Shown in pieces: positions 22,617 through 31,455 of a stretch of DNA of 64,000 bases; within the stretch, counting starts at the first letter, position 1, and every line of letters starts with the position of its first letter. The translations under genes were made by a program, and so were the position numbers. The stretch lies in NCBI GenBank assembly GCA_041395745.1, contig JAWKZV010000001.1, positions 305,127 through 369,126 of the forward strand, written 5' to 3'. The notes under the pieces are model-generated. The model was not told the origin of the DNA. It was given only the letters and a program-made list of their open reading frames with translations, and did no database searches. The stretch is from Porticoccaceae bacterium. Lineage in GTDB: Bacteria; Pseudomonadota; Gammaproteobacteria; Pseudomonadales; Porticoccaceae.

Positions 22617-22952
22617 CTAGTTGCGGGTATTTTCCGTGGCTTCCAGCACTTGTCCGGTAAACGCAATTTTTATCGATAAGGATTGTTTTGTCTCACTATT
22701 GGTTACATGTAGTACATAGAATTCTTTCCCTACAGTTACCACTTTAATGTCACTGGGCTGGACGGACTTCCAGCTGGCATCCAGTTTTCCCGCCTGATGG
22801 CCCATATCTTTAAACGTCATCTGTTGAACGGTTTTAGCGGCAACCTGTTTGGCCCAAGTTTCACTGATGGTCCCGTGGTCGCCGTGTGCCAACGCGAGGC
22901 CGGCAGGGGTGAACAGGCTGAGCAAAAGTAGTGTACGCAGAAACAGTTTCAC
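22617..22952 (-). CDS. Small secreted protein, DUF6488-like, mature N-terminus HGDHG
   Basis: GGAG RBS before GTG 22952; Sec signal ending ALA; QQMTFKDMG...GKLDASWKS resembles DUF6488 proteins (recalled, not searched). Confidence 0.7.
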   Translation of the reverse strand: MKLFLRTLLLLSLFTPAGLALAHGDHGTISETWAKQVAAKTVQQMTFKDMGHQAGKLDASWKSVQPSDIKVVTVGKEFYVLHVTNSETKQSLSIKIAFTGQVLEATENTRN

Positions 22953-22970
22953 GGTGATCTCCGGCAAGGC

Positions 22971-23498
22971 TCAGGGTTTTAGCCCGATAATCTGGTAGCG
23001 GCCATTAATAATGAGCTGAATGGCGACAGGCTGGTCACCGGGATTGTTCCAGTACCAGCCATGGGAGCCGTTGAAAGGGGCGGTAAAACTGCCTTTCATG
23101 GCGCCCAGAGTAGCAATGGCATAGCTTTCAAAGTAACCGCTGGTATCGCCCTCGGGCTCGCCGTGAAGATCGAAGTACAGAGGTGCTCCGTCGGTTATCC
23201 ATTCATAGGTCAGCTTGTCATAGCGGTTCATTTGCAATTTGTATTCGATACCCTTGTGGGCGGGTACGGTGATCTCAATGACTTGTTGCGAAGTCATCTC
23301 GTCAGGCATGGGTTGAGGGGCCAGCGGCGCTGCTTCCGCAGCTTCGGCCAACAGGGTCAGGCCGAGTTTCTGTCCGACCCCGGTAGGGTCGATATTGTAT
23401 TCCGCAGGCAGAATAAACAGGACTAGAGCGATCGCGGCCAGCACGATGGCCGCCAGTGATGCCTTGATCAGGGTGGTCAGACTTACGTGGTGTTCCAT
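22971..23498 (-). CDS. Conserved hypothetical membrane-anchored protein
   Basis: One N-terminal TM (...FILPAEYNIDPTGVG), beta-rich C-domain with FDLHGEP and HGWYW; co-oriented and tightly packed in the efflux unit. ATG 23498 or GTG 23510. Confidence 0.75.
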   Translation of the reverse strand: MEHHVSLTTLIKASLAAIVLAAIALVLFILPAEYNIDPTGVGQKLGLTLLAEAAEAAPLAPQPMPDEMTSQQVIEITVPAHKGIEYKLQMNRYDKLTYEWITDGAPLYFDLHGEPEGDTSGYFESYAIATLGAMKGSFTAPFNGSHGWYWNNPGDQPVAIQLIINGRYQIIGLKP

Positions 23499-23515
23499 GT
23501 TGTCTCTCACTGTGA

Positions 23516-24211
23516 TTACTGTAATGTGAAGCCGGCGAGCTGATAACCCATCAGCATCAAACCGGCGCTCATCAGCAGGGTGTTGGCGAGGGTGGCGAAA
23601 CGTTCAAAGGACGGCAATCGTCGCCAGAAATTAATGGCGATCAGGATAAGGGCCAGTGCGGCAAACTGGCCGAGTTCCACGCCGATGTTAAAGGCCAGCA
23701 GGTTGGTCAGCAGCCCGTGTTCGGGCAGTTGAAACTCCTGGAGCTTGGTGGCCAGGCCGAAGCCGTGAAACAGGCCGAAGATCAATACCGCCCCGCGGGT
23801 ATTAGGCTGTCGTCCCAGCAGCCGTTTGAACCCGCCGAGGTTGTCGAAACCCTTGTACACCACCGACAAGCCGATAATGGCGTCGATCAGGTGAGCGTTG
23901 ACCTGAATGGCACCGAGTACCCCCCATAACAGCGTAATGCTGTGACCGAGGGTAAACATAGTCACGTACAGCAATACCTCCCGGCTTCGATACAGAAAGA
24001 AGATGACCCCCACCAGGAACAGCAGGTGGTCATAGCCGGTCAGCATGTGCTTGGCGCCGATATACAGAAAGGGGACAAACTGCACGCCGCTGTTCTGTTG
24101 CAGAAAGCTGCGGGTACTGTCATCCACCCCGTGGGCCAGGGCGCTGGCAGTGACCAGCGTCAGTAGTGCCAGCAGACCTAACCGGCCTACAAGATTGCAG
24201 TTATTCAGCAT
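23516..24211 (-). CDS. HupE/UreJ family Ni/Co permease-like protein
   Basis: Signal ending ALA then HGVD; [38 protein letters not shown] 24211 overlaps the czcA stop. Confidence 0.88.
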
Positions 24212-29939: not shown

Positions 29940-29984
29940 TAGTTCAGAAGGAAATAGTTCAGTAGGAAATAGTTCAGTAGAAAA
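29940..29984. repeat. 3 x 15-bp tandem repeat in the M56-czcC intergenic region
   Basis: TAGTTCAGAAGGAAA / TAGTTCAGTAGGAAA / TAGTTCAGTAGAAAA. Confidence 0.92.
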
Positions 29985-30998
29985 TTAATGGGAAAAAAAC
30001 GCTTCGATCAGGTGGTGCAGGGTATCGACCCCCACCGCTGACAGGATCGCAGTCAACGCCATGATCGACAGACAGGAAATCCAGGGGAACGTTCGAAACG
30101 CTTGCGGTGTAACCAGTGCCCTGACGCGCAGATCGACATCGTCCGCAATGAAGTAGTTCACGACCAGCGGATTCCCATGGCCCGTCTGGCTGCCCGTGAA
30201 TACGCGCTGGATTCTGGCCGCCTTGACCAGGGTTTGGGCAATATCCAGTTTGCAGTGGGAGTCGCTGACCACGGCGTCGGCCAATTGCTCGGCCGCCATC
30301 GAGAATGCACGGTTCAGACGGCGGGCCACCGGTCTCGGGTAAAGGGACGCGCACAGGGCAAACAGCAATTTTTTCCGGATGTCCCTGTGTTTGATGTGGG
30401 CCCGCTCGTGATCGAGGATGATATCCAGCTCGGTTTCGGAAACCTGCTCGATCAGCCCGGTGGTAACGTAACATTTCGGATTCGAGAGGCCGGCGGCAAA
30501 TGCCGACGGGGTTTTCGATTCAAGCACGACAATATCCCGCCCGATTTCCCAGCGCCGGGCTTTTTCCCGGGTCCGGCTTCCGCTGCTTCCCATGGAGAGA
30601 TGCGTGAGTGAATCCAGGGCATGTAAATGGCGCGCGGCGTTCAGGCCCTTGCTGGTCAGCACATAAGCGATGCCCAGCATAAACATCAACAGGGTCGCGG
30701 CGTGCCAACTTTCCAGATAAAACACATACGGATGGTGCCAGTGGGCCAGTTGGCCCAGCCAGGAGGAATTTGCCCCATGAAACAGGGAGGGCAGGAAAAC
30801 CGACACGCAGATGATGCTGACCCCCCAGGGGGCAGCGACAAACAACCACAACAGCTTTTTTTGCGTGGCGGCAGAAAACTGCGCGATATGGCGAGTCATC
30901 AACGGCCACACTGATGCCAGCAGAAGCGTGGCCAGCAGCAGACCCATGAGTGCGATACTGAGCAGGTTGAGAATAATCGCGGGTTCATTAATCAACAT
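29985..30998 (-). CDS. M56 family zinc metalloprotease (BlaR1/MecR1-like, no beta-lactam sensor domain)
   Basis: Three N-terminal TM helices, SAFAAGLSNPKCYVTTGL, HERAH (HEXXH), EQLAD, fourth TM; 337 aa with no penicillin-binding domain. Start overlaps the repressor stop. Confidence 0.9.
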   Translation of the reverse strand: MLINEPAIILNLLSIALMGLLLATLLLASVWPLMTRHIAQFSAATQKKLLWLFVAAPWGVSIICVSVFLPSLFHGANSSWLGQLAHWHHPYVFYLESWHAATLLMFMLGIAYVLTSKGLNAARHLHALDSLTHLSMGSSGSRTREKARRWEIGRDIVVLESKTPSAFAAGLSNPKCYVTTGLIEQVSETELDIILDHERAHIKHRDIRKKLLFALCASLYPRPVARRLNRAFSMAAEQLADAVVSDSHCKLDIAQTLVKAARIQRVFTGSQTGHGNPLVVNYFIADDVDLRVRALVTPQAFRTFPWISCLSIMALTAILSAVGVDTLHHLIEAFFSH

Positions 30999-31386
30999 TA
31001 TTGGCGATTTCCTGGCCGCGTAGTTGACGCTGCTGCTGAATCATTTTTTCCAGTTGAGACAGTTTTTCGTCATCCAGTCCGGCTGAGACGGAGGAGAAGG
31101 CGGCAATCAGGCTGTCTTCATCTTCGTTGATGAAATCAACAGTGACTTCCTGAATCAGTTGGGCAATCAGTTCCTCTCTGCCGATCTTGGCGCGGTAATA
31201 GTAGGCGTGTCCCTGTTTGTGACGGGTCAGTAGCTCTTTTTTGAACAGCCTGTCCAGGGTGCTCTGAATGGTATTCAGGGTGCCTCCCCGGTGTTTGGTC
31301 AGCGCCCCGTGCACCTGCTTGGCATCGGCCTCCGGCGTTTCCCACAGGTATTGCAGAACCTGCTTTTCTAATTCACCCAGCATCAT
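30988..31386 (-). CDS. BlaI/MecI/CopY family winged-helix repressor
   Basis: LGELEKQVLQYLW, NTIQSTLDRLFKKELL, RHKQGHAYYY; no CopY-type C-terminal Cys motif. Confidence 0.92.
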   Translation of the reverse strand: MMLGELEKQVLQYLWETPEADAKQVHGALTKHRGGTLNTIQSTLDRLFKKELLTRHKQGHAYYYRAKIGREELIAQLIQEVTVDFINEDEDSLIAAFSSVSAGLDDEKLSQLEKMIQQQRQLRGQEIANNVD

Positions 31387-31418
31387 ATTGCGACTTTCCC
31401 AAGTGTCATGCGGGACTT

Positions 31419-31455
31419 ATACTAGCACACAAAAACCGATGAGCAATCGGTTTTG
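31419..31455 (-). promoter_or_regulatory. Putative sigma70 promoter and overlapping operator for the blaI-like operon
   Basis: Minus strand TTGCTC-N16-TAGTAT with TG extended -10; AAAACCGAT-GAGCA-ATCGGTTTT inverted repeat (31432-31454) covers the -35 and lies between the divergent genes. Confidence 0.6.

Follow-up and report, generated by a model that had tools for sequence, protein, structure and literature searches.

Heavy-metal pumps of the resistance-nodulation-division (RND) superfamily are, by the textbook account, controlled by two-component systems, extracytoplasmic function (ECF) sigma factors or MerR proteins. Control by a metal-triggered protease acting on a repressor is represented, in the literature that we searched, by one described case, an unrelated copper switch of cyanobacteria. 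This is the PetR/PetP pair (Slr0240/Slr0241) of Synechocystis sp. PCC 6803, a copper-responsive repressor and protease (Garcia-Canas et al., bioRxiv 10.1101/2020.07.31.226407; commentary PMC7896320) in which PetP degrades PetR only with copper present (bioRxiv 10.1101/2020.07.31.226407). Here we describe a locus in a 64,000-nucleotide stretch of DNA from a marine Porticoccaceae bacterium (GenBank assembly GCA_041395745.1, contig JAWKZV010000001.1, positions 305,127 to 369,126; the whole stretch is called the window below), where a BlaI-type repressor and an M56 membrane protease lacking a sensor domain head the genes of a CzcCBA-type heavy-metal efflux (HME) RND pump. With some reserve, we favor the reading that this is a self-contained metal-resistance module in which metal-triggered proteolysis would derepress the pump, and that it is probably metal outside the cytoplasm that makes the protease cut the repressor. 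A full-text literature search found no paper in which control of a czc-type pump is ascribed to a BlaI/M56 pair.

The core of the locus consists of eight co-oriented open reading frames (ORFs), close-packed on the minus strand from 31386 down to 22617 and listed here from the repressor end:

30988-31386, minus strand: BlaI/MecI/CopY-family winged-helix repressor, 132 aa (PF03965, E 2e-23)
29985-30998, minus strand: sensor-less M56/M48 membrane zinc protease, 337 aa (PF01435, PF05569; HERAH motif)
28611-29927, minus strand: outer-membrane factor (OEP, CzcC/TolC family), 438 aa (PF02321, E 1.9e-20)
27347-28597, minus strand: CzcB-type periplasmic adaptor (HlyD/CzcB domains HlyD_3 and HlyD_D23)
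24201-27335, minus strand: HME-RND inner-membrane pump, CzcA type, 1044 aa (TIGR00914, 1428.5 bits against a cut-off of 701.45)
23516-24211, minus strand: HupE_UreJ_2 polytopic membrane protein (PF13795, E 9e-56)
22971-23498 (175 aa, the start suggested by relatives) or 22971-23510 (179 aa, GTG start), minus strand: membrane-anchored periplasmic beta-sandwich protein, assigned to no family
22617-22967, minus strand: DUF6488 small secreted protein (PF20098, E 1.3e-29)

Overlaps of 11 nt join the repressor gene to the M56 gene (30988-30998) and czcA to the hupE-like gene (24201-24211), and the other intergenic gaps, in the same order, are 57, 13, 11, 5-17 and 3 nt. A first-pass annotation, made from the letters of the window, had described these eight genes, their tight packing and the two 11-nt overlaps; all were recovered at the same positions, and Pfam and NCBIfam support the families that it had named. 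Its delimitation of an eight-gene unit took in all eight genes and left out two predicted operators and a divergent DUF3147-like gene, a probable ninth member, described below. It had also stated that no conventional metal regulator is present, which agrees with our scan of neighboring ORFs: within ~9 kb on either side it found neither a two-component system nor genes for an ECF sigma factor or a MerR protein. The ORFs scanned within ~9 kb of the unit include no beta-lactamase or penicillin-binding protein (PBP), and no hydrogenase or urease genes were found among the scanned neighbors.

The evidence for metal sensing lies first in the protease. This protein has four transmembrane (TM) helices, the HERAH motif at residues 197-201 and a glutamate at E237, and it matches PF05569 at 37.3 bits (cut-off 31). 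It ends 14 residues past TM4 with no further Pfam domain, as the first-pass annotation had noted in calling it a protease without a sensor; a penicillin-binding (class D beta-lactamase-like) sensor domain was not found with Pfam, and the generic blaR1 model NF000326, whose cut-off is 400 bits, gives 15.9. The periplasmic parts are the TM2-TM3 loop, AHWHHP...SWH (residues 86-99), and a C-terminal tail, DTLHHLIEAFFSH (residues 325-337), with the pattern HHxIE...H. Both segments are devoid of Lys and Arg, whereas basic residues mark the TM1-TM2 loop and the beginning of the protease domain, a charge pattern that argues for BlaR1 topology with the loop and tail facing the periplasm. The AlphaFold2 model (predicted local distance difference test score, pLDDT, 91.2; predicted template modeling score 0.89) finds as its best Foldseek matches in the PDB the cryo-electron microscopy structures of Staphylococcus aureus BlaR1 (8EXT, 8EXS, 8EXQ and 8EXR; probability 1.00), with TM-scores against these full-length entries of only 0.38-0.41.

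Among 65 aligned family members the invariant residues comprise H88, H89, W98, H99, H197, E198, H201, E237 and H329, and a further set is conserved in at least 90% of them, namely H86, W87 and S97 in the loop and D325, H328 and E332 in the tail. The tail also usually ends in His, and the same alignment contains no conserved Met in the TM2-TM3 loop. The periplasmic histidines most likely stand in the place of the antibiotic sensor as candidate metal ligands, and those of the loop and tail may together form one metal site.

Other Gammaproteobacteria (L036, L038:2410-10102, L039:1976-10572 and L040) have BlaI/M56 pairs that form a second class. The protease loop of this class is rich in both Cys and His (DHCxAHxxHHxHLC) and its tail has the HHxxE pattern of the window family. 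The pair heads an operon of an OEP gene, a long adaptor (ORF of 600-657 aa) and a CusA-like RND pump. In TM4 this pump has the motif AxG-x3-DDA-x3-VEN, as against DFG-x3-DGA-x3-VEN in the window pump. As the His-only loop goes with the CzcA-type pump and the Cys/His loop with the CusA-like pump, the chemistry of the candidate ligands on the outer face of the protease tracks the class of pump. Between the OEP and adaptor genes of one of these operons (L038:4963-5364) lies a lipoprotein-like ORF of 133 aa in which His, Asp and Glu predominate (as in HDSGEAHDHGPDRDHAHAE...HEHHDNGHHDHGD) and whose composition suggests a probable periplasmic metal buffer.

It is also conceivable that the protease senses metal in the cytoplasm, with its own HExxH/Glu site or another cytosolic site being filled by surplus Zn, Co or Ni, and that the periplasmic histidines are structural. 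The catalytic site, HERAH with E237, is after all itself a metal site, and the work on PetP left the copper site of that protease unlocated. However, invariance or near-invariance extends to eight periplasmic His/Glu positions among sequences that are only 25-35% identical, and the ligand set shifts with the type of pump between His-only and Cys/His; neither fact is easily accounted for by structure alone. RND pumps of the CzcA type, moreover, chiefly clear metal from the periplasm. We regard cytoplasmic sensing as unlikely and prefer sensing by the periplasmic histidines.

The association of the pair with the pump was examined across related loci. The gene order repressor-M56-OEP-CzcB-CzcA is kept, as far as each contig reaches, in all 12 close loci, which come from Halieaceae, Porticoccaceae and related metagenome-assembled genomes (MAGs) with protease identities of 57-69%. 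The same five-gene core is kept in each of seven sampled distant relatives (Paraneptunicella aestuarii, one gammaproteobacterial MAG and five metagenome contigs) at protease identities of 25-38%, and HupE_UreJ_2 directly follows the pump in five of the seven. Synteny over both close and distant loci places the arrangement far beyond chance. The first-pass annotation had set down in advance that its idea would fall if the repressor/M56 pair were not conserved next to the pump in other genomes; the pair stands beside an HME-RND pump in every related locus that could be inspected.

An exhaustive search with the protease over 1.84 billion representatives returned 2,977 relatives at E ≤ 1e-3, of which 289 reach E ≤ 1e-10, and nearly all, among the matches listed, are 310-335 aa long and align over their full length. 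Two weaker M56 matches of the Cys/His-loop type (P0207 and P0187) lie on contigs of ~3-4 kb without a pump, where the context is uninformative. A family member is present in 9 of 400 genomes in an even sample of Gammaproteobacteria, so the module is sparse, yet spread over several families.

The repressor matches PF03965 over 115 of 115 profile positions, and its best PDB matches are Mycobacterium tuberculosis BlaI (2G9W) and S. aureus BlaI (1SD4/1XSD). In the HMMER alignment to the S. aureus structures, SLIAAF of the repressor pairs with SLVLNF, and AAF (residues 95-97) is invariant in all repressor orthologues compared. We take SLVLNF of S. aureus BlaI to contain the cleavage site N101|F102. 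A protein of this family could in principle bind metal directly, as CopY does, with the protease only turning over free repressor or having an unrelated role. The best NCBIfam match is indeed the CopY/TcrY equivalog TIGR02698 (E 2.9e-14), but its score of 53.4 bits is far below the cut-off of 121.95, the repressor is free of cysteine, and a comparison of 18 orthologues reveals neither a conserved Cys nor a conserved His. The protease gene, in addition, is always present, with its start overlapping the repressor stop in the window and in several other loci. Direct metal binding by the repressor is in our view very improbable, and we retain proteolysis by the M56 partner as the preferred route of derepression.

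Two copies of a palindrome provide candidate targets for the repressor, and the first of them lies between the repressor gene and a divergent gene:

31432-31454 (core 31436-31450): predicted operator O1, AAAACCGAT-TGCTC-ATCGGTTTT (from sequence and conservation in 22 loci)
29880-29894: predicted operator O2, CCGAT-TACCA-ATCGG, set between an A-run and a T-run (from conservation in 21 loci)
31473-31835, plus strand: divergent polytopic membrane protein, DUF3147-like, 120 aa (ORF with homologues at the same place)

The palindrome, AAAACCGAY-N5-RTCGGTTTT, is conserved at two fixed positions, one over the putative -35 of the promoter ahead of the repressor gene and the other within the opening codons of the OEP gene. 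O1 is perfect to CCGAY-N5-RTCGG in 20 of 22 loci, and its center lies 51-59 nt (72 in one locus) 5' of the repressor start codon irrespective of which gene is upstream. O2 is perfect to the same consensus in 20 of 21 loci, with its center at +37 to +55 from the OEP start and always in frame 0, where it reads Pro-Ile/Thr-x-x-Arg; in the window it occupies OEP codons 12-16 (Pro-Ile-Thr-Asn-Arg). We infer that both palindromes are binding sites of the repressor and treat them as predicted operators. The putative -35 of the repressor promoter, TTGCTC (31441-31446; TTGACA in some relatives), coincides with the spacer and right arm of O1, and a putative extended -10, read by eye as TGcTAGTAT (31419-31427), follows 16 nt past it. 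On the plus strand, a promoter scan marks a promoter-like site at 31396-31423, use of which would place O1 at about +6 to +20 of the DUF3147-like transcript. An internal promoter at O2 was considered, since the spacer is -35-like, and was set aside in favor of a roadblock; there is no acceptable -10, and the site is always in the OEP frame.

These elements can be assembled into a mechanism. In the repressed state, a dimer of the BlaI-type repressor would bind both copies of CCGAY-N5-RTCGG. On O1 it would cover the -35 of the repressor/protease promoter and probably also block the divergent DUF3147-like gene, and on O2 it would act as a roadblock, so that the pump genes are kept silent without preventing low-level synthesis of repressor and protease. 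A divalent transition-metal cation, once bound by the loop and tail histidines in the periplasm, would activate the cytoplasmic HExxH domain, and the protease would then cut the dimerization helix of the repressor at or near the invariant AAF. With O1 and O2 vacated, the CzcCBA-type pump would be expressed together with the HupE_UreJ_2, beta-sandwich and DUF6488 genes where these are present.

Several observations weigh against parts of this scheme. The residues of the repressor that align with the scissile pair are Ala-Phe, as opposed to Asn-Phe in BlaI. The putative hexamers of the repressor promoter fall below the threshold of the promoter scan. The 10-base operator core occurs 8 times in the 2.5-Mb genome against 2.8 expected; as the core is not rare, the case for the operators is carried by positional conservation, which extends down to 25% protease identity. 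Finally, the RNA of O2 could form a hairpin of modest stability (-10 kcal/mol, z -2.0) with a U-run behind it.

This last point bears on the idea that the palindromes function as RNA hairpins, either attenuators or terminators, and not as repressor sites. The hairpin at O1 is the stronger one (-12.1 kcal/mol, z -3.2, again with a U-run after it), and the position of O2 was flagged by a terminator scan, on the opposite strand. O1 as a terminator was nevertheless ruled out because its flanking genes are divergent; it sits upstream of the putative -10, where there is nothing to terminate. The stem bases are conserved and do not covary, and positions 5 and 11 of the operator vary independently, with T-A, C-G, T-G and C-A all seen and C-A standing at the closing pair in three loci. 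Independent variation of this kind, C-A included, points to a protein half-site and not to an RNA stem. A single sequence at two sites also fits a single DNA-binding dimer, and the N5 spacing is that of the PetR operator. We consider an RNA function very improbable and interpret O1 and O2 as predicted repressor sites.

The pump genes were compared with characterized systems to evaluate which metal might be transported. The OEP has a weak NCBIfam match to IhpA. The CzcB-type adaptor has an extra N-terminal domain of ~130 aa and a C-terminal end HDH, and its orthologues carry PF25971 (CzcB_N) and PF25975 (CzcB_C). The model that it matches best in NCBIfam is that of Bradyrhizobium IhpB (E 9e-51), ahead of CzcB/NccB (TIGR00999, E 3e-22), both under the cut-off. 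The PDB matches of the window CzcA are ZneA (4K0E, 592 bits) and CusA (576 bits), and those of the class-2 pump are CusA (511 bits) and ZneA (494 bits), differences too small for a substrate to be assigned. The TM4 motif of the window pump fits DFG-x3-DGA-x3-VEN, reportedly described by Nies in 2003 as the TM4 motif of divalent-cation exporters, and we presume on this basis that the pump is of the divalent-cation type. Zn, Co, Ni and Cd are inseparable on this sequence evidence.

The genes beyond czcA differ in their distribution from the core. The hupE-like gene follows czcA in loci L001, L002, L015, L017, L019 and L020 and on the plasmids described below; it is absent in L004-L006, L009, L011, L021 and L007 (the last of which breaks off inside czcA), and a remnant is found in L003. 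The trio of hupE-like, anchored-protein and DUF6488 genes is missing in 7 of 9 close relatives that reach past czcA, while switch and pump are kept, and these three genes are optional accessories. The hupE-like protein scores 188 bits with PF13795 (HupE_UreJ_2), an uncharacterized family, as against only 25.8 bits (cut-off 23) with the characterized PF04955.

The anchored protein, which has no match in Pfam or NCBIfam, contains the invariant motifs DLHGEPEGD and HGWYW and has homologues in more than 1000 clusters, among them Marinobacter, Shewanella, Alteromonas and Glaciecola. Its AlphaFold2 model (pLDDT 82) finds in Foldseek only generic beta-sandwiches (GOLD, PPC, CBM), so no function can be assigned to it. 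It is 63-80% identical from Porticoccus to Shewanella, as compared with ~35% for the protease, and this higher conservation suggests for the three accessory genes a mobility of their own, as one cassette. The DUF6488 gene travels with the other two, and the mature end of its product after the predicted signal peptide is HGDHG. A reasonable guess is that the accessory genes serve to handle metal in the periplasm or, by analogy with CnrT or CzcD working alongside their RND pumps, to deliver it there from the cytoplasm.

The divergent 120-aa protein has no significant Pfam match, and its plasmid orthologues are named 'DUF3147 family protein' by the Prokaryotic Genome Annotation Pipeline (PGAP). 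Homologues lie divergently beside blaI in L002, L006, L012 and L020 as well as on all annotated plasmids (Shewanella, Salmonella), and also occur inside the class-2 operons L038 and L039. This gene is probably the ninth member of the regulon. A full-text literature search found no papers that mention DUF3147, DUF6488 or PF13795.

In the first-pass annotation the locus had been read as a BlaR1-type switch for a periplasmic metal, with Ni or Co favored on account of the HupE/UreJ gene. The proposed switch gains from the invariant periplasmic histidines, the lack of CopY cysteines, the predicted operators and the AAF motif, all features read from sequence. The preference for Ni or Co is weak because the hupE-like gene is optional and belongs mainly to the uncharacterized PF13795, with PF04955 barely matched.

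The module is also found on nine plasmids, six of them conjugative, with the core order kept on all nine. Carriers include Shewanella sp. ANA-3, Shewanella decolorationis Ni1-3 and a Salmonella IncC plasmid, and in Shewanella the module is found on conjugative megaplasmids, that of strain ANA-3 having all nine genes. S. decolorationis Ni1-3 comes from metal-laden wastewater and was reported to be resistant to nickel and copper. The plasmid copies sit among metal-resistance genes, and the plasmids come from metal-rich sites. A nine-gene copy (L048) lies at 45193-54393 of the conjugative IncC plasmid pYULZMPS10 of Salmonella enterica serovar London, from pork. It is 99.4% identical to the copy on the Shewanella baltica plasmid NZ_CP051530.1, from fish gut, an identity that indicates recent transfer of the module from Shewanella into Enterobacteriaceae. 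The module was absent from the 5,426 complete E. coli genomes searched.

The genomic setting is relevant to a further explanation, in which the signal is not a metal but envelope stress, a peptide or an organic toxin, and the pump takes part in a general stress response or exports something other than metal. CenIR of Clostridioides difficile and PvmSR of Pseudomonas aeruginosa, sensor-less systems of the BlaIR family with unknown or non-beta-lactam signals, show that such relatives exist. The pump, however, is an HME-RND protein of the CusA/CzcA family with the DFG-x3-DGA-x3-VEN motif, the accessory genes contain His motifs, and the residues on the sensor side are classical metal ligands. The placement of plasmid copies among metal-resistance genes at metal-rich sites likewise speaks for a metal. 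A non-metal signal appears quite unlikely to us, and we continue with metal as the proposed inducer.

Mobility has practical consequences for annotation. In nickel-resistant Shewanella, section 18 of a review (PMC11253441) treats a blaR1 gene close to Ni/Co genes as co-location of metal and antibiotic resistance. Going by that section, the gene may well be the M56 regulator of the present module and not an antibiotic resistance gene. As the protease gene is annotated 'M56/BlaR1', resistome surveys that count blaR1 as beta-lactam resistance would be inflated if it regulates a metal pump. Because the module is mobile on plasmids, it is relevant to studies of metal co-selection.

The host genome (2.5 Mb, 99% complete) contains a single BlaI/M56 pair, that of the window. 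A second czcCBA paralogue lies outside the window (C1:883530-891700, locus L049), with a CzcA 58% identical to that of the window, and adjoins a MerR-family regulator and two cation diffusion facilitator (Cation_efflux) genes. With the window pump beside BlaI/M56 and the other beside MerR, two control modes would serve two HME-RND pumps in one small genome. One further feature of the locus is a short repeat:

29940-29985: 15-nt tandem repeat, 3.1 copies, unit TAGTTCAGTAGGAAA (plus strand), filling the M56-czcC spacer

This repeat is specific to the host genome. The M56-czcC spacers of relatives are 12-30 nt long and lack it, which indicates a recent local expansion in the host.

If the proposed mechanism is correct, a further mode of regulation for heavy-metal RND pumps would stand beside two-component, ECF and MerR control. 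It is possible, and we suggest this tentatively, that sensor-less M56 proteases form a broad, unrecognized class of one-protein transmembrane metal sensors in which exchangeable loop ligands are combined with an HHxxE tail in a portable module. The ligand sets would then be His alone with divalent CzcA-type pumps, Cys plus His with CusA-like pumps, and Met for PetP and copper. The invariant His cluster would make BlaR1-type activation across the membrane addressable in a protein without a sensor domain, with a bearing on BlaR1/MecR1 signaling, and the pair, with a 15-bp operator already defined, could be turned into a compact metal biosensor of two genes.

Comparison with described systems helps to place the module. 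With CzcCBA, CnrCBA and ZneCBA of Cupriavidus metallidurans it shares an outer-membrane factor, membrane fusion protein and RND pump of the CusA/CzcA family with a divalent-type TM4 motif, as well as accessory periplasmic and inner-membrane genes downstream. It differs from these in that a repressor/protease pair takes the place of a two-component system (CzcRS), an ECF sigma/anti-sigma system (CnrYXH) or MerR, and its HupE_UreJ_2, anchored beta-sandwich, DUF6488 and DUF3147 genes are not among the accessories of the czc and cnr clusters. CopY/TcrY of Enterococcus and Streptococcus are likewise PF03965 winged-helix proteins that regulate metal export, but CopY is its own metal sensor, by virtue of a C-terminal CxCx4CxC motif that is absent here, and has no protease partner.

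BlaI/BlaR1 and MecI/MecR1 of S. aureus and Bacillus licheniformis provide the repressor fold, the M56 transmembrane module, the logic of two operators and a cleavage-site helix with a conserved Phe. The window protease, in contrast, has no extracellular penicillin-binding domain, the target is an HME-RND pump and not a beta-lactamase or PBP2a, the operator sequence is different and the host is Gram-negative. With neither a sensor domain nor a beta-lactam target gene, the module departs from BlaI/BlaR1 in two defining features.

The likeness to PetR/PetP, drawn from the published description, extends further; the known control modes given in the first-pass annotation had omitted this precedent (bioRxiv 10.1101/2020.07.31.226407). 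There are differences. The PetRP target is a plastocyanin/cytochrome c6 switch (four genes) with copper as signal, whereas here it is an efflux pump. The PetP loop ligands are two Met and no HHxxE tail is described, as against a His cluster and tail in the window family. PetR also activates a gene, and PetRP is cyanobacterial and chromosomal, whereas the window module is also found on plasmids. In both systems, however, a BlaI/CopY-family repressor without the CopY cysteine motif is encoded by a gene that overlaps the gene of a four-TM M48/M56 protease without a penicillin-binding domain, and candidate metal ligands lie in the TM2-TM3 loop. Both have an inverted-repeat operator with an N5 spacer, GAC-N5-GTC for PetR and CGAY-N5-RTCG for the predicted operators here, whose CGAC...GTCG variants contain GAC-N5-GTC exactly. 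Metal-dependent degradation of the repressor, shown for PetRP, would be the shared principle. In every respect that the sequence reveals, the module would work as PetRP does, and PetRP is its closest characterized system.

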